Shown: positions 1,189-20,372, numbered from the stretch's first letter. The stretch: 64,000 bases of DNA from an uncultured Bacteroidales bacterium (GCA_903946925.1 CAJAXK010000057.1:1807-65806); one strand, 5' to 3'. The notes: a model not told the origin generated them from the sequence alone. Made by a program: numbers and translations.

Positions 1189-4100
1189 TCAAGGCTTTTT
1201 CACCACCACAAACCCGGCAGCATTGTTGTCGGCCATAACAAGGTCGAAAGCATCCACAATTCCATCGCCATTTACGTCGGTGGTGAGATATCCTATTGTA
1301 AAACCTACGGCAGTGGTTTGTATGGATGTTTGGTCAAGGGCATTTACAGCACCATCCTGATTAACATCCCCACAATAAATTAGAAAAACTGTTCCTTTTT
1401 GTTTCAGGTTGTTTCCATAGGCCGCTGTAACAGTTGTACTAAAATTGTAGCTTACTGTACTACCGGCAAAAGAAACCGGTGCTGCCGACCAGGTTTGTAT
1501 GCTGTTGCGGTGTTTTACCACAATATAATAGTTTGCGCTTAATGTACCTGGTATGCTTAAAGATGCAGTTCCATCGGTATTCAAGTTAGCAATATATGGA
1601 CCACCGGCAAGTGCATAAGGCGTGGTTGAGTTGTGCAATTCCACAGTAATTTGGTCAGCAATGGTACCTGAATATTGGTTGCCAACCCCATTTTGGGCTT
1701 TATTCATTGTACTTCCGGCGGTTACAGGGTACAATCCTTCGAGGAATACGTTAAGGTTAAGCGTTTTGGTAGGTAGGGCTGTAACGGTAATAGTATAATC
1801 TTCCACTTCTCCCCATACAGCAGTGCCACAAGGCGAAGTGGCTTCATTGGTATAATGAATCCGAATCCTCATCCTTTTTGAGCCAATAGATGCATTTGCA
1901 GGGCAAGCAATTGTTGCCGAAAAAGGTCCAGGGGTTCCTGTAACAACAATTGCCTGATCGTCTGAAAAATCACCATTGCTGTTCCAGTCCACCCAAATAC
2001 CACAGCGGTCTCCTGTATAAAGTATCCCATTTGAAACAGTAATAGGTACCGATGCCCCTTGTACAATACTTGTTAACAAACTTGTGTAATTAGCATAACC
2101 GCCGGATGAACAAGTGCTAGAATTACTAATTGTACCAATCACAACGTCAGAAATATATTCGTCACAAGTAATTCCATTAGCGGAACAATAGCTAACCAAT
2201 ATTTGTCTATTCCCGGCAGGATTGGTAACCGTCGGCGTTTTAGCTGTTCCCACAGTTAACGAGGTGCATTGTGCATCCAAAGAGTTGTTTAAAACAGCAC
2301 TTTCTGGTACATCATAAGCCAGCCAAAAATAATTTGTCCCACCACTCAAAATCTGGGTTCCTGTAATGGTGAAAGTGCCATTGGGTGAAACAGAAGTGGC
2401 TCCAAATTGAGTTGTAGTAGCAAAAGCATTGCTAGTTCCTGTAAAATACAATTTTGAATTTGTAATATCGGTTACAGGACTTGTAGAGCCAGTTGTATTA
2501 AAAGTAAATGAAGTAGCACTTAAAGGTGTCAAATCACCATTTGTAACAATTTGGATACTAATAATTTCTTGGTTTACCTGATTTGGGGCAACAGATGAAA
2601 TATTGTTTTGGGTTACCGTACTCGAAACATAAGTCATTGCCGTTGACGAATAATAGACAAGAGATTCCCAAAGGCCCCTGCCGAAAGTTGCAGCCCTTAA
2701 CTTGCTTTGTTGAGGATTTGATGCATAATAGATTTCCAATTCGCCTATTTGGACATTAGGTAAACCCGTGTTATAAGCAGCCCAATTATCAGTGCCCTTT
2801 TTAAAATATACACCTAATTCGGTTCCAACATACAATTGTACTTCGGAAGCCGATTGTTTGTTTTGCACAATAGTATAAGCCGGAAGCTGCGGTAAACCTG
2901 CAGAAATATTTGTCCAAGAAGTGCCAGCGTTTATTGATTGATAAACCGTTGAAGCAGAATAACCACTTAAGGTTACCCAAAGTGTATTTGCATCATTGTT
3001 TTTTACAGCAATGTAGGTAATGCTGCCTGAACCTACTGGTAAACTGCCAGTTATAATGGACCAAGAAGCACCTCCATTCGTAGTTTTCCATATTGTTGAT
3101 TGATCAGCTACATAGATTACTTGTGTATTTGAAGGCGCAATTGCCATTGAACGGATTAAATTTGATGTGTTCATGGTGGAAATTTGTGTCCAGTTAGTTC
3201 CCCTGTCAACAGTTTTCCACACATTGGCATATCCGGCATATAATATCATTGGATTGGTAGGATCAATTATGTATGGTGTTACCCATGCACCACTGCCAGC
3301 ACCGGATGGCTCAATTGCAGAAGAAGAAGCCCAATGATTTGTAGTTATATCAATTTGGCCGTTTGTATAAGTTCCATATTGAATATTTACATTCGTATAG
3401 TCAATCAAACATTCCATGCCATCGCCACCTTTCACGTCAGACCAGGTTCCTCCCGAAATAAGTTTGGTGCCGTTATCCTGCAAGCCAGTAATAACCTCAT
3501 TGGAAACTGTTTGCGAAACACCCAGCTTGTACATCTGACTGATAACCATTCCATTGGTTTTGTCAGTCCAGCTTGTTCCGTTGTTGGTCGAAATATAAAC
3601 GCCCCCATCGTTACATTCGAATAAATCGCCATTGTTTCTATAATTTAAGCTATGTTTATCGGCGTGAACCGCTTGGGCACCATAACCACCATACCAGTGG
3701 TTTACCAAAGCCCAACTTGTTCCACCATTAGTCGAACGCCAGGTATTTACACCACCAACCAAAAGGGTATTAGCATTTGATGGTGAAGCGGCAAGGCTCA
3801 AATCGTACCAGCCTTGTCCCCCATCATCACTTCCTGGAATACCATCGTACCATCCCAATAAATTTTTGGTAGTCCCAGCAAAAATTTGCGAATATGAAGA
3901 ACCACTGTTTATTGATTTATAAATCCCGTAAAGCCCACTAACTGAATTAACGGCCAGTGCATAAACCCAGGTTGGTTGATTTGCCGAAACAGCCAGTTCA
4001 ATTCTATAGGCATTTGCATCTATAAATGTCTGTGTCCAGGAAGTTCCGCCATTTGTTGACAAATAAATTGATCCACTTGTTGTTGATCCATAAAGAGTAT

Positions 4101-4962
4101 TAAAATCGCCAGGTTTGTATTCCATGTCGATAAAACTGGTAGTTGTCAATTGTGTGCTCCAGGTAGTTCCACCATTTGTGGTTTTATACACGCCGTTTGA
4201 TGTGGCTGCAATAAGGGTCTGGTTGTTCGATGGATCCAATAGGAGTCTGTAAACCATATTCCAACCCGATAGAGCATAACTTAGCCCTGTAGTATTCCAT
4301 GTAACACCGCCATCAGTTGACTTTAAAACACCAATACTGTTATTGTCCCAATGATCTTTATCGCCTGTTGCAATATAAATTGTGTTTGATGTAGCGAAAT
4401 CGGAAGGGATAACAATATCGCTTACAGCCAGAACTCCATTATTGTCGGTTAAACAGGTCCAGCTTGTGCCATTATTTGTTGTAACCCATAAACCGCCTGA
4501 AGCAGCTCCAACCCAATAGGTATTTGTGTTTGTTGGGTGATAAGCAATACAATTCAAACGGCCAACCCCGGCGTAACCACCAGTAGAACTGCTTGTGCCC
4601 AATGATGACCAACTTGCCGCTGCCGCAGCTTTTGATTGTGGGTTTGTTTTTAAATATCCTTCGTAAATTTCCGCTGCCGTTTTCACTGGGAATTCGCCAG
4701 AAGCTGGATCTATTTTACTTTCCATATCGTATTCCCAGCGCTTAAATTGCTTCCAACCAATTGCTTTTTTCTTTACCCCATTTTCAATATAAAAACCTCT
4801 TTCAACATTATAAGGTTCCCAATACTGATCAAAAGCAGTTTTATAATCAAAAAAAGTCAATTGGCTTTTCGATTTTTGTTGGGGCAAATTTTTTAGCCAG
4901 GCTTGTGAAAACAACATTGATGTTATAAACATCATTACGGATAACAAGTAGATTTTTTTCAT
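1189..4962 (-). CDS. giant secreted protein: BNR/Asp-box beta-propeller region + GEVED domain + C-terminal LEGLY/dockerin-like module
   Basis: 1257-aa ORF with signal peptide MKKIYLLSVMMFITSMLFSQ. About 10 blades carry S/T-x-N/D-G-G-x-S/T-W motifs (TNNGTSW, STDGGVTW, TTNGGTTW...), as in sortilin/VPS10- or GH74-like propellers. WGEVEDYTITV matches the GEVED motif. The last ~190 aa hold two dockerin-type Ca loops, DVNQDGAVNALD and DVNGDGIVDAFD. Confidence 0.85.
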   Translation of the reverse strand: MKKIYLLSVMMFITSMLFSQAWLKNLPQQKSKSQLTFFDYKTAFDQYWEPYNVERGFYIENGVKKKAIGWKQFKRWEYDMESKIDPASGEFPVKTAAEIYEGYLKTNPQSKAAAAASWSSLGTSSSTGGYAGVGRLNCIAYHPTNTNTYWVGAASGGLWVTTNNGTSWTCLTDNNGVLAVSDIVIPSDFATSNTIYIATGDKDHWDNNSIGVLKSTDGGVTWNTTGLSYALSGWNMVYRLLLDPSNNQTLIAATSNGVYKTTNGGTTWSTQLTTTSFIDMEYKPGDFNTLYGSTTSGSIYLSTNGGTSWTQTFIDANAYRIELAVSANQPTWVYALAVNSVSGLYGIYKSINSGSSYSQIFAGTTKNLLGWYDGIPGSDDGGQGWYDLSLAASPSNANTLLVGGVNTWRSTNGGTSWALVNHWYGGYGAQAVHADKHSLNYRNNGDLFECNDGGVYISTNNGTSWTDKTNGMVISQMYKLGVSQTVSNEVITGLQDNGTKLISGGTWSDVKGGDGMECLIDYTNVNIQYGTYTNGQIDITTNHWASSSAIEPSGAGSGAWVTPYIIDPTNPMILYAGYANVWKTVDRGTNWTQISTMNTSNLIRSMAIAPSNTQVIYVADQSTIWKTTNGGASWSIITGSLPVGSGSITYIAVKNNDANTLWVTLSGYSASTVYQSINAGTSWTNISAGLPQLPAYTIVQNKQSASEVQLYVGTELGVYFKKGTDNWAAYNTGLPNVQIGELEIYYASNPQQSKLRAATFGRGLWESLVYYSSTAMTYVSSTVTQNNISSVAPNQVNQEIISIQIVTNGDLTPLSATSFTFNTTGSTSPVTDITNSKLYFTGTSNAFATTTQFGATSVSPNGTFTITGTQILSGGTNYFWLAYDVPESAVLNNSLDAQCTSLTVGTAKTPTVTNPAGNRQILVSYCSANGITCDEYISDVVIGTISNSSTCSSGGYANYTSLLTSIVQGASVPITVSNGILYTGDRCGIWVDWNSNGDFSDDQAIVVTGTPGPFSATIACPANASIGSKRMRIRIHYTNEATSPCGTAVWGEVEDYTITVTALPTKTLNLNVFLEGLYPVTAGSTMNKAQNGVGNQYSGTIADQITVELHNSTTPYALAGGPYIANLNTDGTASLSIPGTLSANYYIVVKHRNSIQTWSAAPVSFAGSTVSYNFSTTVTAAYGNNLKQKGTVFLIYCGDVNQDGAVNALDQTSIQTTAVGFTIGYLTTDVNGDGIVDAFDLVMADNNAAGFVVVKKP

Positions 4963-5161
4963 TGGTTTCAGGGTGATAAAAAGGGTTAATTATTTGCTTG
5001 CTTTTGGATGGAAGGCTTTATTCCCAATTTAACTAATTGGCAATAACGCAATTTTAAAAAACCGCTAAATTATATCATATTGCGATTTATCACAACAGGA
5101 TAAAATAGTGAAGGCCACCAAGAAAAAGGCAGCCTTCAAACATTAGTAGGTTAAAGTCATT

Positions 5162-8100
5162 TCACGGCTTTTTCACCATTATGAAAGCAGCTGCGTTATT
5201 GTCGGTCAATATCAAATCCAAAGCATCAACCACAGCATCGCCATTCACATCCTGCTCAATATATCCTGAACCAAACGACGAGGATTGGCTTTCGCACGAA
5301 TCCATATCAAGTATGTTAACAAACCCATCTTGGTTTATATCGCCACCATAAACGACATATTGACCTGCAGCCATAGTTTTCAGGTTGCTTCCGTAAGCCT
5401 TGGCAGGGTTATCGAAGTAATAATCAATTGTTGCAGCCGAAAACGAAACAGGGTTTGCCGATGTAGTCTCAATACTGTTCCTGTGTTTTATAGTTATATA
5501 ATAAGAGCCATTGTAATTTCCTGGAACCGTAATTGTTGCCTGTCCGTTGGTAAGCAGATCAACACTGCTGGCAGTATAAACAATTTGGCTATAGTTGGTT
5601 GCACTGTGCAATTCCACATCAATATGGTCGGCGATACCGACACCAAAATGTGGCCCGTTTGCATCCTTTGCCTGTTGCATTGCGTTTGGGCCATCATACA
5701 ATCCTTCGAGCAAAACTTTGATATTGAGAGTATGTGGAACCGAAGCAACCGCTACCGTAATAAGGTCGGATCCTGAACAAACATTATTACCTGTAACTGT
5801 CAAAGTGTAAGTTGTTGTTTCTGTAGGGGAGGCAAGTGGATTTGAAATTGCAGGATTATTTAAACCGGCTGAAGGGGTCCACAAATAAGTGTAAGGAGTG
5901 CTTCCACCAGTTGCCGTCCCATTTAATTGAACCGAACTCCCTGGAGACATATTCAAATCTGTTCCGGCATCAACAATCAGTGCATTGGCAACAACCGAAA
6001 TGTTGGAATTAACATAAAATGAGGTTATTACAGCACCAGAAACATCGCTATATTCGCAGGCGCCAGTTGTTTGTGTGTCCCAGCTCAAGCTTGCCGAAAT
6101 TCCAGAAATGGCTTTAAACCTATATTGAATCAAGACTCCGTTTCCTAAGTTTGCGGCGGTTGTTGAAGCCCAAGTTAGATAAACTTTGTTGGCTGAACGG
6201 TTCACAACAAGCAATCCTCCTGTAAGCGCGGCATTGGGAGATTGATATCCATCAAAAACCATTTTGGTTGTGTCGAAAACCATAGTCAGCGAAATACTTC
6301 CTACATTGCTACCGTTTGTAACATTTATTGGCACAAGCAAATTACCTGTACAGGAGTTTGAAATAGTTCCCGAAGTGGTTGTAATGGCTGCCTGTGTAAC
6401 CGTTAATTGTGAGGTGTTTGAAATTACCGATGGGGTGCAAGTTCCGGAAACCACACATTGGTATAAATAACCATTCATTCCAACAGCCGCAGGATTTATG
6501 CCAAGTGAGGCAGAGTTTACACCCGAATAAGGAGATACATTGGTAAGGTTTGACCAATTTGTGCCTCCATTGGTGCTAACCTGCCACTGATAACTTACCG
6601 AAGTTCCTGTGGCTGCAACCGAAAAACTTGTACTTCCACCTGCATAAATGCTTTGGTTTACAGGCTGGTTGGTTAGGGCAGGAGGTTGGTTTATGGTAAT
6701 GTTCCCATTGGTCCAGGTCGAGAAAATAACCAAACCATTGATGTCGCTGTATTCGCAGTTGCCTGTTGTTTGCGTGTCCCAGGTTAAACTGCTTGTTCCG
6801 GGTATTCCAGTAAATTTCAACTCAACAAGCAAACCGGCAGTGGCGATTGTCGCTGCCGAGTTATTTGACCATGTAAGATAAACTTTGCCTCCAACAGCGT
6901 TTACGTTAATCATGCCACCGGTTATTGCAGCATTCAAATTCTGATAGCCGGTATAAATCAACACCGATGGGTTGTAGTTCAACGCAAGCGAAAAGGAAGC
7001 TACACCAATAAAATCGGTTACATTTATGGGAACAATAACTTGTCCGGGACATACAGTTGCCGTTCCGCAGGTGGTGAGAATATTGGGTAAAACTGTAAGA
7101 ACCGCTGGGTTGGAATATACAATTGGGGTACATGTTCCACTAATTTTGCATCGGTATTGGTAAGTGCTTATCGAAAGCTGGGCATTTGTTATGCCAAGAG
7201 TAGCTGTGGTAACATTGGAATACGTGGCTGTATTGCTCAAATCGGTAAAAGTTGAACCACCGTCGGAGCTAACCTGCCAAAGATATCCAATCCCCGATGC
7301 CGTTGCAGTAACACTAAAACTGGTATTCTGCCCTTTTGCTATTATTTTATCGGTTGGATGTGCGGTAACTACTGGTACGCCATAAATGGTTTCATTTCCA
7401 TTAACAAAATCTGTTGCTATTGCTAACCCATTGCTATCGGAATATTCGCAGTTGCCCGAGGTTGCCAGATCCCATGTAAGTCCGCTTGAGCCTGTGGCAG
7501 CGGTAAACAGTAGTTTTACCAAAGTATCGTTAGTAAATGTTGCTGAGGCTGTCGCTGACCAGGTCATATAAACCATACCATTATTGGCATTCGCAACAAA
7601 ATTGCCTCCCGACAAGGCTCCGTTCAGGTTTTGAAATCCTGTATAGGTAAGCACGCTTGGGTTATAGGCAAATGCCAGCGAAAAAGAAGCAACACCTGTA
7701 AAATTGGTAACCTTAACCGGAACAACAATATTTCCAGGACAAAAACTACCTGTTGGCAAAGTGCTTGTTATTGGGTTTACGACAGAAAGTGTAACCATAT
7801 TTGAATAAATCACAGGAGTACAAGTTCCGGTGAGCCGGCACTTGTATTTGTATCCGTTATAACCTAACAAGCAGTTGGTAATGCCCAAAGTTGGGGTGGT
7901 AACACCCGTATAGGTTGCATTGTTGGCTAAATCGGCCCATGTATTCCCTCCATTGGTGCTGTATTGCCAAAGATACGCTATGGATGTTCCTGTGGCGGAA
8001 ACGCTGAACGAGGTATTTTGTCCAACCAAAACCGATTTATCCAAAGGCTCTGCACCTATAATTGGCGGCTGGTTTATGGTTTCAGTTCCATTAACGAAAG

Positions 8101-8536
8101 TGGCTGCAAGGGCAACGCCGTTTACATCGCTGTATTCGCAGTTTCCCGGCGTCTGTGTGTCCCAAACAAGCGAAGTGATACTTGGCAAAGCATTGAACCT
8201 TAATTCAACCAATGTGCCGTTTCCAAGGTTAGCGGCGGTTGTCCTGGCCCAGCCTATCACGACCTGGTTGCCGGAAGAATAAATTGTCATCAGCCCCCCG
8301 TTCAATTCAGGGTTTAGGTTCTGGTAACCTGAATAGGTCAATTTGGTGTTGTCGAAATTCAGCAGCAGCGAAATAGCACCGATACCATTGCAATTGGCAA
8401 CAGTTATAGGAACCACAATTTCGCCCGGACAGCTTGTGACCGATCCTGCGGTTGTGCTTATCGTTTGGGCATTAATGAAACCCGCCCAAATTATCAGCAA
8501 CAGCAGTGGTATTCGATGTAAAATCAGAGTTTTCAT
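5162..8536 (-). CDS. secreted scaffold-like protein: 4 cohesin-like modules alternating with Ig-like modules + C-terminal LEGLY/dockerin-like module
   Basis: 1124-aa ORF with a signal peptide. Four ~130-aa units fit the cohesin pattern (PGEIVVPITVANCNGIGAISLLLNFDNTKLTYSGY...LVELRFNAL...CEYSD). The first three are each followed by a ~95-aa Ig-like unit (SFSVSATGTSIAYLWQYSTNGGNTW...YKYKCRLTG). The C-terminus carries DINQDGFVNILD and DVNGDAVVDALD and ends ...FIMVKKP. Confidence 0.8.
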   Translation of the reverse strand: MKTLILHRIPLLLLIIWAGFINAQTISTTAGSVTSCPGEIVVPITVANCNGIGAISLLLNFDNTKLTYSGYQNLNPELNGGLMTIYSSGNQVVIGWARTTAANLGNGTLVELRFNALPSITSLVWDTQTPGNCEYSDVNGVALAATFVNGTETINQPPIIGAEPLDKSVLVGQNTSFSVSATGTSIAYLWQYSTNGGNTWADLANNATYTGVTTPTLGITNCLLGYNGYKYKCRLTGTCTPVIYSNMVTLSVVNPITSTLPTGSFCPGNIVVPVKVTNFTGVASFSLAFAYNPSVLTYTGFQNLNGALSGGNFVANANNGMVYMTWSATASATFTNDTLVKLLFTAATGSSGLTWDLATSGNCEYSDSNGLAIATDFVNGNETIYGVPVVTAHPTDKIIAKGQNTSFSVTATASGIGYLWQVSSDGGSTFTDLSNTATYSNVTTATLGITNAQLSISTYQYRCKISGTCTPIVYSNPAVLTVLPNILTTCGTATVCPGQVIVPINVTDFIGVASFSLALNYNPSVLIYTGYQNLNAAITGGMINVNAVGGKVYLTWSNNSAATIATAGLLVELKFTGIPGTSSLTWDTQTTGNCEYSDINGLVIFSTWTNGNITINQPPALTNQPVNQSIYAGGSTSFSVAATGTSVSYQWQVSTNGGTNWSNLTNVSPYSGVNSASLGINPAAVGMNGYLYQCVVSGTCTPSVISNTSQLTVTQAAITTTSGTISNSCTGNLLVPINVTNGSNVGSISLTMVFDTTKMVFDGYQSPNAALTGGLLVVNRSANKVYLTWASTTAANLGNGVLIQYRFKAISGISASLSWDTQTTGACEYSDVSGAVITSFYVNSNISVVANALIVDAGTDLNMSPGSSVQLNGTATGGSTPYTYLWTPSAGLNNPAISNPLASPTETTTYTLTVTGNNVCSGSDLITVAVASVPHTLNIKVLLEGLYDGPNAMQQAKDANGPHFGVGIADHIDVELHSATNYSQIVYTASSVDLLTNGQATITVPGNYNGSYYITIKHRNSIETTSANPVSFSAATIDYYFDNPAKAYGSNLKTMAAGQYVVYGGDINQDGFVNILDMDSCESQSSSFGSGYIEQDVNGDAVVDALDLILTDNNAAAFIMVKKP

Positions 8537-8549
8537 AACGAAATGATTT

Positions 8550-11500
8550 TTAGTTTGATACCACTACCTTTATCATGTCGGAACTGTATTGTCCGTTGCT
8601 GGTGATTTCTATTTTTAATAAATATATGCCTGGTTTGAGGTTTGAAGCATCTAAAGCAACTTTATGGTTTCCTGAAGCAAGCTCAGTATTTTTGAGGTCT
8701 TTAACAAATGTACCGGCACTGTTTAACAGGGAAATATGAACATTTCCTTCTTTTTCGAGTGAAAATTCGATTACCGATTTAAGGGTAATCGGGTTAGGAT
8801 ATACTGATAATCCAACAAGTTTGCTGCCATCGTCAATCCCTATTGCTTTGGCATTGATGGTAGGTATTGAAACTATTTGCCAATTGTTTGGAGTTGCCAA
8901 GCCGTCAGCAAACTCACAATCCTCATACATTTCCAATTCAATACCAACATTTAGGTTCGAAAGGTCTTTAGCTTTCATCCGGAGTATTACCACAATTTCG
9001 TCATCGTTTACATCCAATGTATTCCTGTCGCACCATCCCATTTTAAATAATCCATCCACAGCAGTCCACGAAAAATCATTGTAACCATTAGCTAGTTTAG
9101 CCCCGACAATTTCGAGATATTGTTCAGGATAATAGAACCCTAAGGATATGGCACCAACCTGCATTCCAGTTTTCAGCCTTACCGGAAATTCAAATTCTGT
9201 ATTCGATTCCACTTGCAACGTACCTTCGAGAACCAATCCTGATGATAGTGCACTTTTTGAGGCCGGGGCATACGATGCATTTACATCGCCAAAGCAAAGC
9301 ACTTCGATATTTCCGGTAACGTTGCTTCCGTTTATAATCACAGTATCGTAATTGTAGAGGTAATCGCCGGCTGGGAAAGTACTGATTTGGTTTGCAAAAC
9401 GTTTCAACACCAAAAGGGCATCGGTACCGTTCACGCTGTGGCTGAAGTTAACATCTGCAGCAGCCAGTTTTATTCCTGAAATCGGGATTGTTTGAGCAAA
9501 ATGGTTCAGTATTGCCAAAGCGTCAGTTGAGTTTACACCACCCCATACAGTAGGTGTTACCGTCATTTTGTAATTACCCGAAGCCATGGAAGGCAAGGTA
9601 TAAACACCTGAACCATTTGCTGTGGTGGAATTGATAGTTGCATTGCCAAAATCTTTGACCACCAAGCCGGCATTCATCATTGGGTAAGCACTGGCACTGG
9701 AATATTTTACCGTTCCACCCATTATTGTGGCAGAAGTAAAAAGTGAAGGCACTTGTGCGAAAGGACCAATATAAACCCTTCCTTTTGCGGCATTATCTGA
9801 TTTGTCGTAAATCCGGTACATTGCCATGGTGGAGTCACCGGTTCCCCAAAAGTTGTAACGCGCGTCTATAGTGTTGGCCGTATTGTTGTACAGGTCGTAA
9901 GAACCATAATTGTTCAGGAAGTTGTTGGTGTAAGCCGAGGTGTTTCCCAAGGTTGGTGTACTGCTTCCATCCAAATAAATCCCATAAGCGGTGTTGTAAT
10001 CAAAAGTAGAATTCCTAATTGCCGGGGAAGAATTCACAATATTTAAACCGTTACCGACTGCTTGATTAATGTTACAATATTGAATGGTTGGCTGTGTGGT
10101 ATTTTCGGCAAGCACATTGTAAATATTCCCTTTTCTTATGTTGCTGTATTTTAGGGAACTAACAGCACCACCATAATCACTCAGATCGTGAAAATAGATT
10201 CCATTCCAATCCCCGGCAATACCGGTGTACGGTGCGTAGGTAATTGTACTATCGGCTTTTCCAACCGACCATAATTCGCCTCCATAAGGATATCCGGCAG
10301 CATAGCCAACCTGTATATTTTTTCCTGATGCGAAATTTAAAGTATTGCCAGGTTCAACGGTTAGCCTACACACCGAATAATATTTCCCAATGGTAATATT
10401 TCCCAACACCAGATAATCGGCATTATCCTTCAATAAAGTCCTGTTTTCGGAATAGGTTCCGCCCGACAAGGCCAACATATTCAGAACATTTCCCGAAAAA
10501 GTATTGTACTTGTGGTAAGGTGCCGATGTCCAATCGAGGAAATTTACAGGATATCTGCCATTGTTGCTAAACGTACAATTGGTAAAAGACCCGCTACTTG
10601 CATTGTATCTAAGTCCATCGGTAACGGCGTTGGAGAAGGTACAATTGTCTAAAGTTACACTGCTGGTATTTTCGCAAAGTATATTGTAGGCATTCGCTTT
10701 TTGAACTATGCAATATTTCAATTGATTGGTGGCTCCACTAAAATCGCTAAAATCGTGAAAGTATATACCGTTCCAATCCCCGGCAATTCCACTGTAGGGT
10801 GTAAATGTTATAATGCTGTCAGCCTTCCCAATAGCGTACAATTCGCCTCCGAAAGGATAACCATCAGGATAGCCAACCTGAATTTTTTTACCTGGTGCAA
10901 ACGAAAGTGTTAAGCCCGGTTCAATGGTTAACCGACAGAAAGTATAGTATTTACCAACCATGATGTTATCTAAGATATGGTATCCGATACCATCATTCTG
11001 AAGGGTGCGGCTATCAGTCATACTTCCACCACTAAAACCAATCATATTGATTCCGTTTCCCGAATAGGTGTTGCCACTCAAAACCGGAAATGTGTGTACT
11101 TCAGAAAAATAAAGGGGATACCTTCCGTTATTTGCAACTGTAGAATTTGTAAGGGCATTGTAAGCTCCGTAAAATTTAATCCCATCCTGAACAGCATTCC
11201 TTATGGTGCAATGGTTAATGCTTGGTTGATTTGTATTTTCTATATACAAATTGTATGCGTTGGCTTTTTCTACCACGCAATAGTACAGAACAGATGTTGA
11301 GGTGTAAGAATCGCTCAGATCATTAAAATACAGTCCTTCCCAACCTCCTGCCGTACCATTGAACGAAGTAAAAGTTATCAAACTATCGGCACCGCCAATG
11401 GCATACAATTCGCCGCTGTAAGGATAACCCGCATAGAAACCTATTTGTATATTTTTTCCCGCAAGCATTTTTATAGTGTTTCCTGGCTCAATCGTGAGGC

Positions 11501-13715
11501 GGCAAGAAGAGTAGTATTTCCCAACCCTTAAGTTGTTTGTTATGATTATGGGAAATGAAAGGGAATTCCAACGGTAGTTACTCTCCACGTCGCCTCCCGG
11601 CAAACAAACACCGTTGTAGGTGTTGTTTGTTAAGGTAAGTGTTCCAAGATGCTCGGTGAGCGTAATACTTACTGTTGGATAAAATAAGGCATACAGGTTA
11701 TTGGAAATGGTAGTGTTACTATAATTAGGCAACGAAGTGGCAGACGAAAGATAAACTCCTGCGTTTGTATTGTTGGTAATCGTACTGTTTATCAATGAAG
11801 GATTTGAGTTGTAAAGATACAAACCGTTTCCTGTACCGTTTTGTATTTTTGAGTTCTGGATTACAAGATTAGATGTCTCCAGGCGTATTCCTGTACCTTC
11901 GGCCCGGTTTATGTTGCAGTTCGACAAAAGAGGTTCGTTTGTTTGGTCGCAAAACAAGTTGGCATCATTAGATCCAAACCCTGCATTGGAAATTACTGTG
12001 TAATTAAATTGGGAAGAAACGCTTACATCGCTCTCGGGCGCAAAATAAATTCCATCCCATTTCCCAACTTCGCTGTTGTAGCTCAGGAATTTAACTGAAT
12101 CAACCGCTGTGCCATTACAAACTACATTGGCTTGACCAACATTAAGTCCTGTTTCGGGCAGGAATAAAATGGTGGATCCGGCTTGGAAGGTATGCGTTCC
12201 ACCGGTAAACGAAATATCTGATGTGGCCCAATAAGGACTAGCCGCTTTTGTAAACGTAAGCGTGGAGTTGAGGTTTCCGCTAAGCTGTGTGCCCTGAGTG
12301 GTCAATTTCATTTCGTTAAACGTTGAGTTAAACGTAGTTGAACCAGTCAAAATAGCGGCATATTGAAGGTATTGCTTGGTAATGCCTAAAATTATGGGCG
12401 ATGCCGTAACCAAAGAAGTCCAGTTACCCCAAATCCCATCGCTGCCAGCGGTGCGATACGTTACCTGTAAATTTGCCGGGGCAGTAAACGCTTTTTTGAA
12501 GGCTATAGAATCAATAATCCTTTCGCCTCCAAGCTCAAAAAATGGATTGGAGACAAAAACCCCATGGTTTACAAAATTGGAAGTCATTGCTAAATTTGCA
12601 TACCTACAGTTAAAAATGGGGGTGCCCGAAAGGTTGGCCCCACCAGCATAATATAATTGTCCGTTTCCGCTAAAAGCTGAACCATCTTTGGTATAATCGT
12701 ACAACACATTGGCGGATGTTGACCACGCCAGGGAAACGGCATCGGCATTGGCAAAATAAACAGTGTTACTCAGTGTTGCTCCAACAGCACCGGCCATAAC
12801 CGTTATCAAGCCATTTGTAACTACCGACGAATGGTTGCTTATGGCCACAGGCAAGTTTGTTCCTGTACTCCACGCGCCCGTTGAACCATCCAAACCTGGC
12901 GTAGCAATATACACCGTATTTACTTTTGTGCCTGAGTTGTTGTAACCGCCAAGCACATAAAGTTTACTGTTGTAGGTTAAGGCACTATGTCGGTTACAAG
13001 CTGTTGGCAGACTTGTTCCGGAAACAAAAGCCGATAGTGTGTTCAGCGCATTAACTTTTGCATAATAAACTGTGTTCAAAGCCGTGTTCTCTGTCAATGA
13101 ACTTGAACCTCCAATCACATAAATGGCTCCCATCATGTACGTTGCGGTATGCCCCCAAAGGTTTACGGGAAGTGTTACGGATGAGGTTTGCCATGCCCCT
13201 ATTGTACCATCGGTATTAATTGCCGCATAGTAAATGGTATTAAATACCTGTGTATCGTTTTTCCCACCAATTACATAAATTGTGTTGGTTCCAATTACTA
13301 CCGCTGGATCGCGCAAAGCAGTTGGCAGGGCATTTAGTGCCGTCCAACCTGTAATTCCTCCCGACTGTATGGTTGCAACATAAACCGTGTTTACATAGCT
13401 GGTATTGTTAAAACCCCCAACCATGTACACATACCTGTCGTTCCATGAAACGGTTTTATGCCCGGCCAAAGTTTGGGGCAAAACCGTAGCGGTAAGCCAA
13501 CTACCGACATCGGTAGCTGAATTTTGAAGGTAAACATTGTCGCTTGCAGCCACAACGTTGTTAAACACGCCTTTGTTAAAATCGGCATTCAGGGTTTGTG
13601 TAAAATTAACCTGAGCCATAAGGCTCGTAATTCCCATTGCTAAAATGGAAACAAATCCCATGAAAAGAGTTTTTAGCGTAAGCCGGTTAGTCGTAAAACG
13701 TAAATTGTTTTTCAT
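8550..13715 (-). CDS. giant T9SS-sorted surface protein: Kelch blades + triplicated beta-helix modules + dockerin-like pair + one cohesin-like module + T9SS type-A CTD
   Basis: 1721-aa ORF with a signal peptide. Kelch-type strands are present (YVYMVGG, IYVIGG, LYVLGG). Three ~190-aa repeats each contain NNGRYP(L/V). A dockerin-like pair is GGVNSTDALAILNHF / SVNGTDALLVLKRF. One cohesin-like unit reads FEFPVRLKTGMQVGAISLGFYYPEQYLEIVG. The terminal ~85 aa (LSVYPNPITLKSVIEF...GIYLLKIEI...VVVSN) fit the Por secretion tail. Confidence 0.85.
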   Translation of the reverse strand: MKNNLRFTTNRLTLKTLFMGFVSILAMGITSLMAQVNFTQTLNADFNKGVFNNVVAASDNVYLQNSATDVGSWLTATVLPQTLAGHKTVSWNDRYVYMVGGFNNTSYVNTVYVATIQSGGITGWTALNALPTALRDPAVVIGTNTIYVIGGKNDTQVFNTIYYAAINTDGTIGAWQTSSVTLPVNLWGHTATYMMGAIYVIGGSSSLTENTALNTVYYAKVNALNTLSAFVSGTSLPTACNRHSALTYNSKLYVLGGYNNSGTKVNTVYIATPGLDGSTGAWSTGTNLPVAISNHSSVVTNGLITVMAGAVGATLSNTVYFANADAVSLAWSTSANVLYDYTKDGSAFSGNGQLYYAGGANLSGTPIFNCRYANLAMTSNFVNHGVFVSNPFFELGGERIIDSIAFKKAFTAPANLQVTYRTAGSDGIWGNWTSLVTASPIILGITKQYLQYAAILTGSTTFNSTFNEMKLTTQGTQLSGNLNSTLTFTKAASPYWATSDISFTGGTHTFQAGSTILFLPETGLNVGQANVVCNGTAVDSVKFLSYNSEVGKWDGIYFAPESDVSVSSQFNYTVISNAGFGSNDANLFCDQTNEPLLSNCNINRAEGTGIRLETSNLVIQNSKIQNGTGNGLYLYNSNPSLINSTITNNTNAGVYLSSATSLPNYSNTTISNNLYALFYPTVSITLTEHLGTLTLTNNTYNGVCLPGGDVESNYRWNSLSFPIIITNNLRVGKYYSSCRLTIEPGNTIKMLAGKNIQIGFYAGYPYSGELYAIGGADSLITFTSFNGTAGGWEGLYFNDLSDSYTSTSVLYYCVVEKANAYNLYIENTNQPSINHCTIRNAVQDGIKFYGAYNALTNSTVANNGRYPLYFSEVHTFPVLSGNTYSGNGINMIGFSGGSMTDSRTLQNDGIGYHILDNIMVGKYYTFCRLTIEPGLTLSFAPGKKIQVGYPDGYPFGGELYAIGKADSIITFTPYSGIAGDWNGIYFHDFSDFSGATNQLKYCIVQKANAYNILCENTSSVTLDNCTFSNAVTDGLRYNASSGSFTNCTFSNNGRYPVNFLDWTSAPYHKYNTFSGNVLNMLALSGGTYSENRTLLKDNADYLVLGNITIGKYYSVCRLTVEPGNTLNFASGKNIQVGYAAGYPYGGELWSVGKADSTITYAPYTGIAGDWNGIYFHDLSDYGGAVSSLKYSNIRKGNIYNVLAENTTQPTIQYCNINQAVGNGLNIVNSSPAIRNSTFDYNTAYGIYLDGSSTPTLGNTSAYTNNFLNNYGSYDLYNNTANTIDARYNFWGTGDSTMAMYRIYDKSDNAAKGRVYIGPFAQVPSLFTSATIMGGTVKYSSASAYPMMNAGLVVKDFGNATINSTTANGSGVYTLPSMASGNYKMTVTPTVWGGVNSTDALAILNHFAQTIPISGIKLAAADVNFSHSVNGTDALLVLKRFANQISTFPAGDYLYNYDTVIINGSNVTGNIEVLCFGDVNASYAPASKSALSSGLVLEGTLQVESNTEFEFPVRLKTGMQVGAISLGFYYPEQYLEIVGAKLANGYNDFSWTAVDGLFKMGWCDRNTLDVNDDEIVVILRMKAKDLSNLNVGIELEMYEDCEFADGLATPNNWQIVSIPTINAKAIGIDDGSKLVGLSVYPNPITLKSVIEFSLEKEGNVHISLLNSAGTFVKDLKNTELASGNHKVALDASNLKPGIYLLKIEITSNGQYSSDMIKVVVSN

Positions 13716-13897
13716 ATTGCTGGTTTTTGATTAGGTTTCTGGAAATAAAGTCAAGGTTTGGAAGTAAAGTATGGAGTTGAACGATTCGCACAAGACAAAA
13801 AAGAATGGAACCTGCAGCGATTAAAAAGAATTCAAAAGCTTGAATGGCACAGTGTTCTGAATGGTTCCCCAATAGTATTACAAAATTGAACCGAAGT

Positions 13898-13931
13898 TAA
13901 ACAATCTGCAATAGCCTAATCAGGTCATTTT
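13898..13931 (-). promoter_or_regulatory. conserved intergenic motif, copy 1 (minus-strand reading AAAATGACCTGATTAGGCTATTGCAG...)
   Basis: Near-identical to 14368..14403 and similar to 19656..19680. Lies ~180 nt upstream of the 13715 start codon. Confidence 0.5.
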
Positions 13932-14241
13932 GCGTTGTTGATACGCGCTCTCAGAATAAGGAATTTTTGCACCAATTAAGTTTTTGGAGAAATGTTTGCC
14001 AAGCTGGCAGGGGATTGAAAAAAGCTTATCTGAATATTAGAGTCTGCTTAACTAAAAGAGGGATTGGCAATCAATAAAACACATACAGAAAAAGACCGGT
14101 ATGAACTGTAGGTATAATAAAACCAGGTCTAATGATTTACACAGATCGAAAGGCAATGGCATTGAGGCTGCAAGACTTTGGTTTTTGATGTAGATGTGGT
14201 ATTTTATTCTAAGCCAATCCAGGATAAATAAAAATAAAAAT

Positions 14242-14340
14242 GCTACCTCCAAAAACAAAAAATGATGTCAAAATTTTGGGATCAATATCTTAAAGCAATA
14301 CATAGAAAGCATATCAGAATCTATTGTTTTCGGAGGTAGC
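14242..14340. repeat. 17-bp inverted repeat (GCTACCTCCAAAAACAA / TTGTTTTCGGAGGTAGC) with a 65-nt loop
   Basis: The arms at 14242..14258 and 14324..14340 are reverse complements with one mismatch. The element sits in the 920-bp gap between two giant-protein genes. Confidence 0.6.
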
Positions 14341-14367
14341 CTTTTGTTGTGCAAACATGAGGGAATG

Positions 14368-14403
14368 TAAATAATACTGCAATAGCCTAATCAGGTCATT
14401 TTT
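14368..14403 (-). promoter_or_regulatory. conserved intergenic motif, copy 2
   Basis: taaataatactgcaatagcctaatcaggtcattttt compared with copy 1 taaacaatctgcaatagcctaatcaggtcatttt: two mismatches in 34 nt. Confidence 0.5.
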
Positions 14404-14634
14404 GTGTGCTAAACAAATAAGACCAATCGTAACGGATTTAATGAAATTAACAGACGGGAAACCGAATACGGAAAACGGGGTAAAAGGGAATTTGCAGTAA
14501 ATATTCTGTTAAAAAAGTTTCATTCGTAGATAAGTTGGTTGAATGTTAGCTGTTAAGCATAAAAATCTCAGATGGGAATTCCGGACTCCCGGAAATCTTA
14601 TTCAACACACGAAATGAATAGCCGGAACAGTTGC

Positions 14635-16110
14635 TTATGGCAAAATTACCGTTACAAACGCAGCTGCATTGTTATCCAAAAGTATCATATCCAGGGCATC
14701 CACAATTCCATCGCCATTTATGTCCTCCGAAATATAATCTATGCCAAAAGAGTCTGCATGGTTTTTAACATCCAGCATATCAAGAGCATTTACAACACCA
14801 TCCTGATTGGAATCTCCGCCAAATAGAGCATACTGCCCATCGGCAAGTAGTTTCAAGTTGTTTCCAAAAACCAATTCCGGCTGTGTAAAACTGTAATTTA
14901 TAGTGCTTGCAGCAAAGGAAACAGGCAGTTTGGTGGTTACCGATACACTGTTGCGGTGTTTTACCGTAACATAAAATGAACCGCTATGTGTAGCAGGAAT
15001 ACTAATTGAAGCTGACCCGTTGGTAAGGAGGTTTACATTATTGTCGGTGTAAGCAACAGTATTGTAATTTGAGTTTTGGTGAAGCTCAATTGACAACTTG
15101 TCGGCAATATTACCTGTAAACTGATCCCCCGAACCGCTCTGCGCTTTGTTCATCTGGCCTCCACCTGCATAAAGTCCTTCGAGATAGAGATTTAGGTTCA
15201 GAATTTTGTTAACCAATGCCTGTAAACCAGTAAATGTACCGAAGGTGGTAAGACCGGTAGCGGCAAACTGGTGGAGGTTGGAGTTTACTGGTGTAAAATA
15301 TACAGCAGGCACTGGCAAAACCTGGGCTCCACTGATACTGTTTTCATCGCCTACAACATCGGAATCAACATATTGGAAAACAGCATTGCATTGTGGATTT
15401 GTGATTCCATTCTGTCTTAATTCCCAGTACCTGCTTAAGTAATTTCCTGATGAACCGGGAAAAGCGGAATTTGCGAGTTTCACGCCTAAATAATTTTCTG
15501 AGCTAAAAGTACCTCCAGCAAAAGTTATAGTTACAGGCGTATAATCGGGTGTTCCGGAATTATCGCCCACGGGAAAAGTGAAAGTACCAACACCTGAAAA
15601 ACTTTTTCGCAATTCGCCGGTACCAGTGGCAACAACCATTGCAGAAGAAGATGGCGTTCCGGAAACCGAAGCAGTGCTACCCAGTATAAGGTTATTTGAT
15701 CCAAGCCTGATATGGCCGCCTTGAAGAGAAAGCGCAGTATTTACAGCAGTATTCCCATTGAGGTCGATTCCTGCCGGATTATTCACAACCAATGTGCCAA
15801 TTGTATTTTGGCCGGTAGCACTTTGGGCAGTTGTTCCAGAAAACTCAATTGTACCATTGCCCAAATTTCCGAAAGGATTTTGGTTGACAAGATTTTTCTT
15901 GAGGATAAGGGTGCCATCCACAGTAAGCCCGCCTCCATTTTGAACGGCCAGGTTTTGCAATGAAGTTACAACGGTTCCAGAACTTATTTTGATATTCGTC
16001 CCGCTCAAAACAGTGTTCTGTGAAATTACCGGATCAAACAGAAGGTTTGTGGCAAGGATAACTACTACAACTATTGCCAATTTATCGGGAAACAATTTAA
16101 GAAACAACAT
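14635..16110 (-). CDS. secreted protein with a beta-solenoid-like N-terminal part and the C-terminal LEGLY/dockerin-like module
   Basis: 491-aa ORF with a hydrophobic N-terminus. The C-terminal 190 aa (LNLNLYLEGLY...VTVKHRNSVSV...DSNQDGVVNALD...DINGDGIVDALD...FVTVILP) are homologous to the tails of 1189..4962 and 5162..8536. Confidence 0.8.
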   Translation of the reverse strand: MLFLKLFPDKLAIVVVVILATNLLFDPVISQNTVLSGTNIKISSGTVVTSLQNLAVQNGGGLTVDGTLILKKNLVNQNPFGNLGNGTIEFSGTTAQSATGQNTIGTLVVNNPAGIDLNGNTAVNTALSLQGGHIRLGSNNLILGSTASVSGTPSSSAMVVATGTGELRKSFSGVGTFTFPVGDNSGTPDYTPVTITFAGGTFSSENYLGVKLANSAFPGSSGNYLSRYWELRQNGITNPQCNAVFQYVDSDVVGDENSISGAQVLPVPAVYFTPVNSNLHQFAATGLTTFGTFTGLQALVNKILNLNLYLEGLYAGGGQMNKAQSGSGDQFTGNIADKLSIELHQNSNYNTVAYTDNNVNLLTNGSASISIPATHSGSFYVTVKHRNSVSVTTKLPVSFAASTINYSFTQPELVFGNNLKLLADGQYALFGGDSNQDGVVNALDMLDVKNHADSFGIDYISEDINGDGIVDALDMILLDNNAAAFVTVILP

Positions 16111-19100: not shown

Positions 19101-19595
19101 ACTAAAAGCCCAAATATATCTTGTGTAAGGTGTTAAGCAATCAAGATTTGTTTCTGTATAAAAAGTACTTGTCCCAACATCAAATGCGGTTGATATATCA
19201 TTTGTAGTGTTCCATTTGTATCCTAATGCATTTGTAACCATATTCCAATTCCACTCAATTTGAGATGAGGTAGCTGTATGGCTTCCTGATGTAGGAGATA
19301 AAGGTCCCAAGCAGTTAGCACTTAATGTGTACCATTCGCCCGAAATAAACAACGATAAAGCACCGGTCCCATTTGCACAATCGGTACAATAAACCATCAA
19401 CCCATCAGCAGGATTTGGTATAGCACCCATTTCTGCCCTTGTCATCCGAGGGATCAACAAACCTTTGTTAGTGGATTTAACATCCAGCATTGCTGAATTG
19501 TCGGGATTAGTACCATCAATATTTATGGAAACCTGTGAAAAGAGCACGCCATTGATGAACAAAATCAGTATCAGGGAAAAAAGATTTTTCTTCAT
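16131..19595 (-). CDS. secreted protein: 7 tandem FN3-like repeats + Fibrobacter-paralogous (FISUMP)-like domain + FN3-like + DUF1566-like lectin-fold domain
   Basis: I moved the start to the ATG at 19595 (MKKNLFSLILILFINGVLFSQ, a signal peptide). The track ORF begins at an upstream GTG at 19658 that overlaps the conserved motif. There are seven 86-aa repeats (WNWN..GATGYKWNTTNDY..TRY.WAYS.CG). CWITSNLGA...DPC..LGSGWRIPTYQEW is FISUMP-like. GGIIFYIDGTGQHGLIS...NGYNDWFLPSLNEL...YWSS...VRAIRAF is DUF1566-like. Confidence 0.8.
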   Translation of the reverse strand: MKKNLFSLILILFINGVLFSQVSINIDGTNPDNSAMLDVKSTNKGLLIPRMTRAEMGAIPNPADGLMVYCTDCANGTGALSLFISGEWYTLSANCLGPLSPTSGSHTATSSQIEWNWNMVTNALGYKWNTTNDISTAFDVGTSTFYTETNLDCLTPYTRYIWAFSSCGASTATVLTHTTAGDVLFAPTQGSHIAMPQMIMWNWSTVSGATGYKWNTTNDYTSATDMGTNTTNQEFGLTCNTPYTRYVWAYSACGNSTPELLTQSTPENPPASPTSGTHFSMPQMITWNWNAALGATGYKWNTSNDYGSATDLGTSTMNQEFGLTCNTTYTRYVWAYGDCGLSDPVTLSQTTSLNPPATPTTGTHIPSATQIVWNWNAVAGATGYKWNTTNDYASATDMATALTKTETSLICNTAYTRYAWAYSVCGNSSPVNLNQTTSLNPPATPTTGTHISSATQIVWNWNVVTGATGYKWNTTNDYSSATDMATALTKTETSLICNTAYTRYAWAYSACGNSTAVTLTQTTSLNPPATPTAGTHVPSATQIVWNWNVVAGATGYKWNTTNDYASATDMATALTKTETSLICNTAYTRYVWAYSACVNSTPITLTQTTSLNPPATPPAGTHVPSATQVVWNWNVVSGATGYKWNTSNDYSSAIDMTTTTTKTETSLICNTVYTRYAWAYSACGNSTPVTLMQTTSACAFACGNTLTINHVTGSVAPVTKTVAYGTVTGILGEPTKCWITSNLGADHQATYVSDVSEESAGWYWQFNRIQGFKHDGTTRTPNTTWITWIEEPSNWIAANDPCSLELGSGWRIPTYQEWFNVDANGGWTNWSGSWNSDLKIHAAGAIHNEFANLIGRGQEALLWSSTQSNVSDGLFLYSYFIYCNLTYHSKSYGIAVRCLKDAGSSSTIPTVTTSTITNTGQTNATGGGNITSDGGGSVTARGVCWSTTANPTITESHTSDGSGTGAFVSQLSGLTPNTPYYVRAYATNSSGTAYGNEVTFSTNVALAIGQSYQGGIIFYIDGTGQHGLISATTDQTAVYVPWGCTNTSIGTSPAFGTGQANTNAILAGCAEAGTAARVCDELVLNGYNDWFLPSLNELLQMYQQRTAIGGFGSAMYWSSSQLNSQRAYFHIFYLNYTGDGYKHDGSLVRAIRAF

Positions 19596-19655
19596 AGTAC
19601 TATCATTAAAAAAGTTGGGGATGTGGAAGTAAAAGTAGAACAGTTGAAAGTCTAT

Positions 19656-19680
19656 CACAATAGCCCAATCGGGTCATTTT
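19656..19680 (-). promoter_or_regulatory. conserved intergenic motif, copy 3 (AAAATGACCCGATTGGGCTATTGTG on the minus strand)
   Basis: Lies between the response-regulator stop (19686) and the 19595 start. It differs from copies 1 and 2 at two positions that keep CCY...RGG complementary. Confidence 0.5.
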
Positions 19681-19685
19681 TATAC

Positions 19686-20315: not shown

Positions 20316-20372
20316 GTTATTTTTTTTGTAAAAGTAATGCCGAAAAAAGGTGTGGTCAATAGCCTTAAAAGG

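Follow-up and report, generated by a model that had tools for sequence, protein, structure and literature searches.

The DNA analysed here is a stretch of 64,000 nt (the window) from an uncultured Bacteroidales bacterium (GCA_903946925.1, CAJAXK010000057.1:1807-65806). Four minus-strand genes between positions 1189 and 16110, designated A, B, C and D, encode proteins with cohesin and dockerin modules, and their open reading frames (ORFs) coincide exactly in coordinates with those of an initial annotation of this DNA (Table 1). The region holds all five cohesins and all four dockerins of the window, the remaining genes of which are housekeeping or unrelated. This concentration, together with the retention of the arrangement in other genomes, shows that the clustering of the modules is not due to chance. 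Across related loci the C–B gene pair is the conserved core, and the modules probably mediate an assembly linked to a protein sorted by a type IX secretion system (T9SS).

Judged by its modules, gene B encodes a non-catalytic multi-cohesin scaffold. The whole protein matches the Pfam Cohesin family (PF00963) with an E value of 8.4e-24. The modules were also scanned against Pfam in isolation, and cohesins 1 to 3 pass the gathering score of 24.1 bits on their own; cohesin 4, which is 39–47% identical to these three, lies just under it. A phmmer search of the Protein Data Bank (PDB) with the whole of B returned mostly immunoglobulin (Ig) domains and a cohesin only at E 0.036, which made profiles necessary, and the internal repeats were established by hidden Markov model (HMM) and alignment. 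The four cohesins share 60–73% identity with the module at the same position in close orthologues versus 39–54% between positions within B. For cohesin 1, the identity is 50–72% with position 1 of the orthologues versus 34–49% with their other positions. Thus, the four cohesins are old and non-equivalent, whereas the cohesins of CipA are near-identical. Exactly four cohesins are present in 108 of the 120 best B homologues.

At their C-termini, A, B and D have in common not just a dockerin of ~60 residues but an entire tail of 194 residues, 45–51% identical between the three by BLASTP and alignment. Each tail contains two canonical Ca loops (DINQDGFVNILD and DVNGDAVVDALD in B, DSNQDGVVNALD and DINGDGIVDALD in D), and the loop residues are at least 90% conserved among 97 members of the tail family. 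With the Pfam Dockerin_1 profile (PF00404, gathering score 22.9 bits) the B dockerin is marginal at 22.5 bits, and no Pfam family matches the X part of the tail. The AlphaFold2 model of the D tail, computed with the 97 relatives, has a predicted local distance difference test (pLDDT) score of 97.6 and a predicted template modeling score (pTM) of 0.92, the latter indicating that the 194 residues form one rigid unit, with the helices that follow the Ca loops at tail residues 145–156 and 175–186. All ten best PDB matches found with Foldseek are type II X-dockerin dyads, namely those of CipA/CipB of Clostridium thermocellum and ScaA of Acetivibrio cellulolyticus (5k39_B, 4wi0_B, 4u3s_B, 5m0y_B, 2b59_B, 5g5d_B, 3kcp_A and 4fl4). 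The alignments extend over 190–200 columns, with 11–16% sequence identity and a root mean square deviation (RMSD) of ~5 Å. The template modeling (TM) score normalized by target is 0.60–0.63 for chains that contain only the X-dockerin and 0.36–0.37 for the longer cohesin–X-dockerin chains; normalized by query it is 0.50–0.55 overall and 0.50–0.52 for the X-dockerin-only chains. The predicted tail structure is that of an X-module and dockerin dyad resembling the clostridial type II dyads. It shares with the X-dockerins of CipA, CipB and ScaA (2b59, 5k39 and 4wi0) the two-module architecture and orientation as well as the C-terminal position on a scaffold protein, but at this low identity and large RMSD, and the dyad described here also occurs on non-scaffold proteins.

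Gene C combines a dockerin, a cohesin and a T9SS type-A C-terminal domain (CTD) behind a Kelch propeller and beta-helix repeats, which are discernible in the translation. The module comprising residues 1488–1625 is a cohesin. A Pfam scan of this module in isolation gives no Cohesin match; an alignment of 64 C modules and an alignment of 82 B cohesins match one another in hhalign with a probability of 98.6% (E 1.3e-15), the family profile of the C-terminal cassette matches the Archaeoglobus cohesin 2xdh_A with E 4.5e-8, and several of the more than 185 homologues of the cassette have the corresponding module annotated as PF00963. The AlphaFold2 model of residues 1321–1721 (pLDDT 91.4, pTM 0.74) shows a cohesin β-sandwich, which Foldseek aligns with cohesins from cellulosomes and from elsewhere, 5nrm_A, 2xdh, 2vn6_A, 6kgd_A and 4ums with TM scores of 0.63–0.74 and RMSD values of 3.2–3.9 Å. 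The pTM of the modeled cassette suggests that the C dockerin may pack in cis on the C cohesin.

The C dockerin belongs to another class than the tails of A, B and D. In front of it stands a CarboxypepD_reg-like module (24.2 bits, under the cut-off of that family). Of the two Ca loops of the dockerin, the first, WGGVNSTD, is degenerate and the second is near-canonical (DVNFSHSVNGTD), so that the two loops expected of a dockerin are seen only in part. The cassette profile matches the solved dockerins 1ohz_B (E 7e-6) and 8x3a_A, and the model contains three helices in this region. The CTD has a profile match to the solved T9SS CTD 8glj_D. In Pfam and NCBIfam scans neither Por_Secre_tail nor TIGR04183 matches A, B or D, whose C-termini are formed by the dockerin; these three proteins carry Sec-type signal peptides without a lipobox. 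By its module content, C is a candidate surface anchor and a candidate partner of B. Among the homologues of the cassette, the CarboxypepD_reg and dockerin unit also occurs without cohesin and CTD, appended to enzymes: GH18 chitinases, polysaccharide deacetylases, C1A cysteine peptidases, endonuclease I and a GH39-like protein, from Bacteroidota and Ignavibacteriaceae according to the source names. The C-type unit represents a second class of dockerins, one that has enzymes as cargo.

The initial annotation had spoken of cohesin-like and dockerin-like modules. Pfam, hhalign, PDB profiles and predicted structures identify them as real cohesins and dockerins, with three of the four B cohesins and three of the four dockerins above the gathering score, and the description of B as four cohesins followed by a C-terminal dockerin, and of C as having one cohesin and the only T9SS sorting domain among A–D, was borne out. 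The view that A and D end in the same dockerin-like module stands as regards the sharing; the module itself is the 194-residue X-dockerin, and the B tail belongs to the same class. NCBI labels relatives of these proteins 'cohesin domain-containing' or 'dockerin type I domain-containing'.

Homologues of B number in the hundreds among uncultured Bacteroidales, one of them from a named Lentimicrobium sp. (63% identity), and an identical locus is present in several ENA metagenome assemblies. A survey with one genome per GTDB species yielded 72 loci, 62 of them with informative upstream sequence. They include metagenome-assembled genomes (MAGs) of Lentimicrobiaceae, Prolixibacteraceae and Draconibacterium as well as the cultured Roseimarinus sediminis DSM 28824; the closest is that of MAG KTt_bin-0938 (87%), and the Lentimicrobiaceae stand at ~61–63%. 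With custom HMMs, a C-type gene was found directly upstream of the four-cohesin gene in 60 of the 62 informative loci, down to ~41% identity, and in 55 of these 60 the dockerin, cohesin and CTD of C were all detected. The flanking genes vary. In the Lentimicrobium locus (L006) they differ from A and D and encode a 2,740-residue S8 peptidase/GEVED protein and a 280-residue protein, both ending in the same tail, and another locus (L073) has an A orthologue whose tail is 72% identical. By this comparison C followed by B is the conserved core, to which A and D are lineage-specific additions; the anchor, scaffold and cargo gene set of the initial annotation, which had also left the second-class dockerin of C unused, is to be narrowed to that extent.

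The C-terminus of B takes alternative forms. A T9SS CTD is found in 35 loci and an X-dockerin in the others, of the canonical kind in 7 and of a divergent subtype in 12. In the CTD type the entire X-dockerin is replaced by another module and the CTD. Of the 19 loci in which B ends in an X-dockerin, 11 have other X-dockerin genes within 10 kb, versus 1 of the 35 in which it ends in a CTD (Fisher p = 8e-6, for loci that are not phylogenetically independent). The alternation fits a role of the dockerin tail as an indirect attachment of B to a T9SS-sorted protein. In Roseimarinus sediminis DSM 28824 (L043, NZ_JBNPXV010000004.1), the B gene of the pair measures 1,507 codons from stop to stop and encodes four cohesins and a CTD. 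A contig of a Bacteroidales MAG (L076, 5165-22027) contains an ORF that measures 5,621 codons in this way and encodes 10 B-type cohesins and a CTD, showing that the cohesin scaffold can be greatly expanded, and the neighbouring genes there carry single cohesins each.

C and B are separated by 13 nt in the window, and this gap together with the hairpin that follows B supports the pairing and suggests that C–B may form a single transcription unit and that A is transcribed separately. The 919-nt gap between D and C contains a 51-nt direct repeat (13881-13931 and 14352-14402, 76% identical, with a 26-nt exact core, CTGCAATAGCCTAATCAGGTCATTTT) and a 27-nt inverted repeat at 14237-14345. These repeats may be regulatory sites upstream of the C–B operon.

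Table 1 Genes A–D, their modules and the predicted terminator.
Feature	Position	Strand	Description
Gene A	1189-4962	-	1257 aa (amino acids); signal peptide, Sortilin/Vps10-type BNR propeller, BNR_assoc_N, GEVED, X-dockerin tail
A X-dockerin tail	1192-1773	-	Dockerin_1 30.0 bits
Terminator-like hairpin	5109..5138	-	Just past B stop; 11-bp stem then T run; consensus scan only
Gene B	5162-8536	-	1124 aa; signal peptide, four cohesins alternating with three Ig (Ig_3), PKD, X-dockerin
B X-dockerin tail, aa 931-1124	5165..5746	-	45–51% identical to A and D tails
B cohesin 4, aa 714-850	5987..6397	-	Cohesin 21.3 bits, under 24.1; homologous to cohesins 1-3
B cohesin 3, aa 484-618	6683..7087	-	Cohesin 31.1 bits; positional orthology
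B cohesin 2, aa 253-387	7376..7780	-	Cohesin 39.8 bits; positional orthology
B cohesin 1, aa 24-157	8066..8467	-	Cohesin 34.3 bits
Gene C	8550-13715	-	1721 aa; signal peptide, Kelch propeller, three beta-helix repeats, C-type X-dockerin, cohesin, T9SS type-A CTD
C T9SS type-A CTD, aa 1638-1721	8553..8804	-	Por_Secre_tail PF18962 38.3 bits, TIGR04183 30.4 bits
C cohesin, aa 1488-1625	8841..9254	-	hhalign, PDB profile, Foldseek; no Pfam match
C CarboxypepD_reg-like module and C-type dockerin, aa 1321-1487	9255..9755	-	Dockerin_1 35.7 bits
C right-handed beta-helix, three repeats, ~aa 500-1290	9846..12218	-	Beta_helix 86.3 bits in 5 stretches, NosD 41.4 bits
C Kelch-type beta-propeller, ~aa 90-370	12606..13448	-	Kelch_KLHDC2 82.5 bits, Kelch_1 45.8 bits
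Gene D	14635-16110	-	491 aa; signal peptide, ~295 aa of no known family, X-dockerin tail
D X-dockerin tail	14638-15219	-	Dockerin_1 31.0 bits

The N-terminal 787 residues of A, scanned alone, match Sortilin-Vps10, a BNR-type propeller, with 72.7 bits. The GH74-like identity proposed for this propeller in the initial annotation was not upheld, since GH74 gives only partial matches of E ~1e-6 driven by the BNR repeats and Sortilin-Vps10 is the best Pfam family; a match to the NCBIfam model 'F510_1955 glycosylhydrolase' is sub-threshold (99.8 bits, cut-off 175 bits). The N-terminal 297 residues of D have no relative in Pfam or PDB searches. Pfam finds no glycoside hydrolase (GH), carbohydrate esterase (CE) or polysaccharide lyase (PL) catalytic domain and no carbohydrate-binding module (CBM) in A–D, in agreement with the earlier statement that this is not a classical cellulosome. 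Of the components of a cellulosome the locus contains a multi-cohesin scaffoldin (B, with four cohesins); no dockerin-bearing carbohydrate-active enzyme (CAZyme) and no scaffoldin CBM are found in it, and the locus thus falls outside the definition.

The X-dockerin tail belongs to a large family. An exhaustive HMM search with the tail retrieved 3,378 representative clusters (defined at 50% identity) at E<=1e-30 and 8,715 at E<=1e-10. The tail stands at the extreme C-terminus in nearly all of the top 150 members, and Pro closes the sequence of 113 of 120 members in one sample and of 122 of 141 in another. The carriers range from 260 to ~2,900 residues. A Pfam scan of 47 of them matched 51 families, the commonest being GEVED (12 carriers), PKD (7), BACON (7), CUB (5), Peptidase_S8 (3), Peptidase_C25 (2), Sortilin-Vps10 (2) and Peptidase_M14 (1), with no glycoside hydrolase among the 25 commonest of these families. 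This is the repertoire normal for T9SS cargo, with the X-dockerin replacing the CTD. Many members of ~260 residues consist of a signal peptide, ~45 residues and the X-dockerin dyad, with no other domain.

In metagenomic assemblies, 80 loci with X-dockerin genes were sampled. The genes form tandem arrays of two or three in 18 of them. A B-type cohesin gene is present in three loci and a gene with only a C-type cohesin in two, which amounts to four loci because one has both, and these are too few to fix the wiring. Two loci (L124, 2-6355, and L144, 493-6201) contain ScaE-like proteins with a single B-type cohesin and a CTD beside adaptor-like proteins with one or more B-type cohesins and an X-dockerin. 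Other metagenomic variants of the system include L121 (3205-4266) and a protein made of a single cohesin and an X-dockerin.

Signals as to which module binds which come from the comparison of tails and of evolutionary rates. The subtypes of the B tail and of the neighbouring tails match in all 13 loci that have both, and the mean tail identity is 44.5% between B tails and 43.8% between B and neighbour tails. The residues of the dockerin helices are lineage-specific and common to B and its neighbours, with DTADM in both repeats in L006 and L059 versus NALD/DALD in the window and L073. This co-variation within genomes argues that scaffold and 'cargo' tails would use one receptor type. Because the B tail is of the same class as those of A and D, the module type cannot place A and D on B rather than directly on C. 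The hierarchy of anchor, scaffold and cargo put forward in the initial annotation therefore stands only in part: C is the sole CTD bearer and B the multi-cohesin protein, but the tail of B is not set apart from those of the supposed cargo. For the rate test, module divergence was normalized by the Ig spacers and the beta-helix, using independent closest pairs, of which 10 were taken from CTD lineages and 6 from X-dockerin lineages. The relative divergence of the C cohesin is 0.84 in the CTD lineages versus 1.37 in the X-dockerin lineages (p = 0.016, uncorrected), which is suggestive only of a C cohesin rate that tracks the B tail type; for each of the four B cohesins, the C dockerin and the C CTD the difference has p > 0.14.

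An extracytoplasmic location of the proteins is plausible from the signal peptides, from a Cys pair that is invariant in every cohesin and Ig module, and from a second CTD protein encoded in the window. The explanation that we prefer is that the X-dockerin dyads of B, A and D would plug in a Ca-dependent manner into the cohesin of a CTD-bearing protein, most probably that of C, so that a T9SS-sorted protein would keep proteins without a CTD at the cell surface. B would, in this lineage, have given up its own CTD for the indirect attachment, and its four distinct cohesins would recruit further dockerin proteins. The most conservative candidate for the latter is the C-type dockerin, which is the one dockerin that is present beside B in every lineage and whose insertion into the B cohesins is thus the most conservative account of the C–B pairing; some X-dockerin proteins may also be recruited. 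The displayed proteins would be adhesin- or propeller-like and, across the family, peptidase-like rather than cellulases. Ca-dependent binding, surface location and the role of C as anchor are what we infer from these patterns. A ScaE-like wiring is slightly favoured by the tail and rate signals and by analogy, although the specific proposal that all X-dockerins go to the cohesin of C is tentative and somewhat doubtful, and the explanation as a whole, a compromise between the probable assembly and this wiring, is evenly balanced between being right and wrong. The surface complex built on a T9SS-anchored protein that the initial annotation envisaged gains from the finding that B orthologues end in either a CTD or an X-dockerin, but the CTD-less A, B and D would still need a route through the outer membrane.

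Several observations weigh against attachment to the C cohesin. The wiring draws on analogy and weak comparative signals, and the rate shift of the C cohesin is not significant after correction for 7 tests and may equally reflect relaxed constraint. The C cohesin, with the whole dockerin–cohesin–CTD cassette, is kept where B has a CTD and X-dockerin neighbours are lacking, so that its ancestral partner cannot be the tail of B. L124 and L144 combine a B-type cohesin and CTD protein with a B-type cohesin and X-dockerin protein, and B-type cohesins may accordingly act as X-dockerin receptors. No cohesin gene lies within 10 kb in 76 of the 80 sampled X-dockerin loci, a single C cohesin is available for three local tails, and no signal known to take a protein across the outer membrane is found in A, B or D. 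C itself may not stay at the surface after CTD removal.

Some of these observations would be accommodated by a three-tier hierarchy, in which the C cohesin holds only the tail of B and the B cohesins hold A, D and other X-dockerin tails, as CipA holds enzymes. The module counts fit such a scheme, with 1 + 4 sockets for 3 + 1 plugs; A and D flank the C–B pair, an X-dockerin gene often lies directly after B in the X-dockerin lineages, the tail family is very large, like the enzyme dockerins of cellulosome producers, and L124 and L144 suggest that B-type cohesins can receive X-dockerins. Nonetheless, we consider it unlikely. The B tail is not a separate class and co-varies with the A and D tails, which implies that B would also bind B, and the rates of the B cohesins are not shifted between X-dockerin and CTD lineages. 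Only one of 35 B-CTD loci has X-dockerin neighbours. The known X-dockerin dyads, moreover, bind anchoring and not enzyme-integrating cohesins (Foldseek match list; PMC5301203). The strictly C-terminal position of the tail and its usually terminal Pro would fit an autonomous sorting or surface tag that acts independently of local cohesins, either as a new C-terminal secretion signal or as a Ca-dependent binder of glycan or outer membrane. The carriers are of the usual CTD-bearing types (C25, S8 and M14 peptidases, BACON, PKD and GEVED), the tail replaces the CTD in B orthologues, and most tail genes have no cohesin gene nearby. Such a tag is improbable in view of the fold, which matches cohesin-binding X-dockerins with both Ca loops intact, the non-random co-location of tails with cohesin genes, and the helical dockerin at the end of the tail, where known T9SS CTDs are terminal β-sandwiches.

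Cohesin-like and dockerin-like modules are reportedly widespread outside cellulosomes, with no shown partner, and A, B and D share an entire 194-residue cassette, as would be expected from local duplication. Both points favour the explanation that there is no functional complex and that the modules are shuffled structural or stabilizing domains brought together by exchange between neighbouring genes. However, the individual B cohesins have long been kept, as seen in the higher identity at the same position than between positions, C–B adjacency persists at low identity, the tail subtypes co-vary and the Ca-loop residues are conserved, which makes this explanation very unlikely. The X-dockerin may alternatively be a trans-acting T9SS sorting tag. 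CTD-less proteins (A, B, D and their relatives, which run to thousands) would dock in the periplasm on a CTD carrier such as C, cross the T9SS translocon with it as a folded complex and stay displayed on it. The T9SS exports folded proteins and needs a folded CTD (PMC9251779). Piggyback export would explain the CTD/X-dockerin swap in B, the strictly C-terminal tail and its presence on C25, S8 and M14 peptidases, which are classic T9SS-type cargo (C25 being gingipain-like). A literature search returned no report of piggyback or hitch-hiking export via the T9SS, and we regard this route as a long shot.

The analogy behind the preferred attachment of X-dockerins to C is with Ruminococcus flavefaciens, in which ScaB, CttA and a cysteine peptidase each use their X-dockerin to bind the one cohesin that the sortase-anchored ScaE has, the components being encoded in one sca cluster, ScaC-ScaA-ScaB-CttA-ScaE (PMC5301203). 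As in the present locus, one cluster encodes a multi-cohesin X-dockerin scaffoldin (ScaB), a non-scaffold X-dockerin protein (CttA) and a single-cohesin protein, in that case ScaE, which is covalently fixed to the envelope, and the ScaH dockerin, which binds the cohesin of its own protein, recalls the two module types of C. The present system differs in belonging to a diderm Bacteroidales and not a Gram-positive host, in using a T9SS type-A CTD and not LPXTG/sortase, and in having no CAZyme or CBM. Its cohesins are remotely related, with the archaeal 2xdh as best PDB sequence match, its putative anchor C is a large Kelch/beta-helix protein with a dockerin of its own, and its cohesin–dockerin binding is putative.

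In the T9SS-bearing phylum Cloacimonadota, an in-silico analysis of Ca. Stygibacter predicted a cellulosome-like complex with a scaffoldin that combines tandem cohesins and a T9SS CTD, the dockerins being carried by S8 and C25 peptidases and by GH18 (PMC8542988). The B-CTD orthologues and the cargo repertoire of the present family recall this complex. The phylum is different, however, the scaffoldin has 3,755 residues with CBM2/CBM3, and no X-dockerin dyad, C–B-type pair or CTD-to-dockerin swap was described (PMC8542988). The best sequence match to the present cohesins is 2xdh of Archaeoglobus fulgidus and the best structural match is 2w1n, from GH84C/NagJ of Clostridium perfringens. These structures and 2o4e likewise represent cohesin–dockerin pairing outside cellulose degradation, but in unrelated organisms, in other domain contexts, without a T9SS link and at ~15–18% identity. 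The literature search found no account of the conserved C–B pair, of the four positionally orthologous cohesins, of the type-II-like X-dockerin family or of its alternation with a T9SS CTD in Bacteroidales, and no paper combined cohesin, dockerin and Lentimicrobium.

Elsewhere in the window, a 1412-residue ORF at 29801-34039 (minus strand) matches TIGR04183 at residues 1355–1408 (24.4 bits, cut-off 23) and is a second T9SS cargo, which argues that a T9SS exists in this genome. It has no Pfam family at E<=0.001, no cohesin and no dockerin. No T9SS component was found among the window ORFs scanned with Pfam or NCBIfam, some smaller ORFs having been left unscanned. Upstream of D lies a trio of genes on the same strand (16131-23690, minus) with gaps of 20–57 nt: a histidine kinase with an FG-GAP/ASPIC-type sensor region (20373-23690), a LuxR-type response regulator (19686-20315) and gene E (16131-19658). 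Gene E, annotated as PTL_trimer in the source data, encodes 1175 residues without a dockerin, comprising about seven tandem repeats of ~95 residues and, at the C-terminus, an Lcl/DUF1566-like region. In the Lentimicrobium locus the C–B pair does not have the trio beside it. A GT4 glycosyltransferase (Glyco_transf_4 and Glycos_transf_1) is fused to a radical SAM/SPASM domain in a 785-residue protein (46640-48997, minus); with the nucleotidyltransferase/tyrosine-phosphatase fusion (45210-46643) and the O-methyltransferase (44242-45207) that come after it, it makes up an unusual modification gene cluster. A Bro-N domain protein, of a phage-associated family, is encoded at 35958-36806 (minus) and a single tRNA gene lies at 43108-43181 (plus), the only hit of an Rfam scan of the window; beyond these two, nothing in the window points to a prophage.

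If the proposed binding is true, cohesin–dockerin assembly would not be confined to Gram-positive cellulosomes but would also underlie a widespread and conserved surface system in diderm Bacteroidales, represented in MAGs from many metagenome projects, that is coupled to type IX secretion and displays adhesins and peptidases rather than cellulases. A role would be assigned to a very large unannotated C-terminal module with more than 3,000 clusters (at 50% identity and E<=1e-30), and the four non-equivalent cohesins and two dockerin classes would offer protein engineers new orthogonal cohesin/X-dockerin pairs. The system also poses the question of how CTD-less proteins reach the Bacteroidota surface. 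The cultured Roseimarinus sediminis DSM 28824, with its C–B pair, opens part of the system to experiment.

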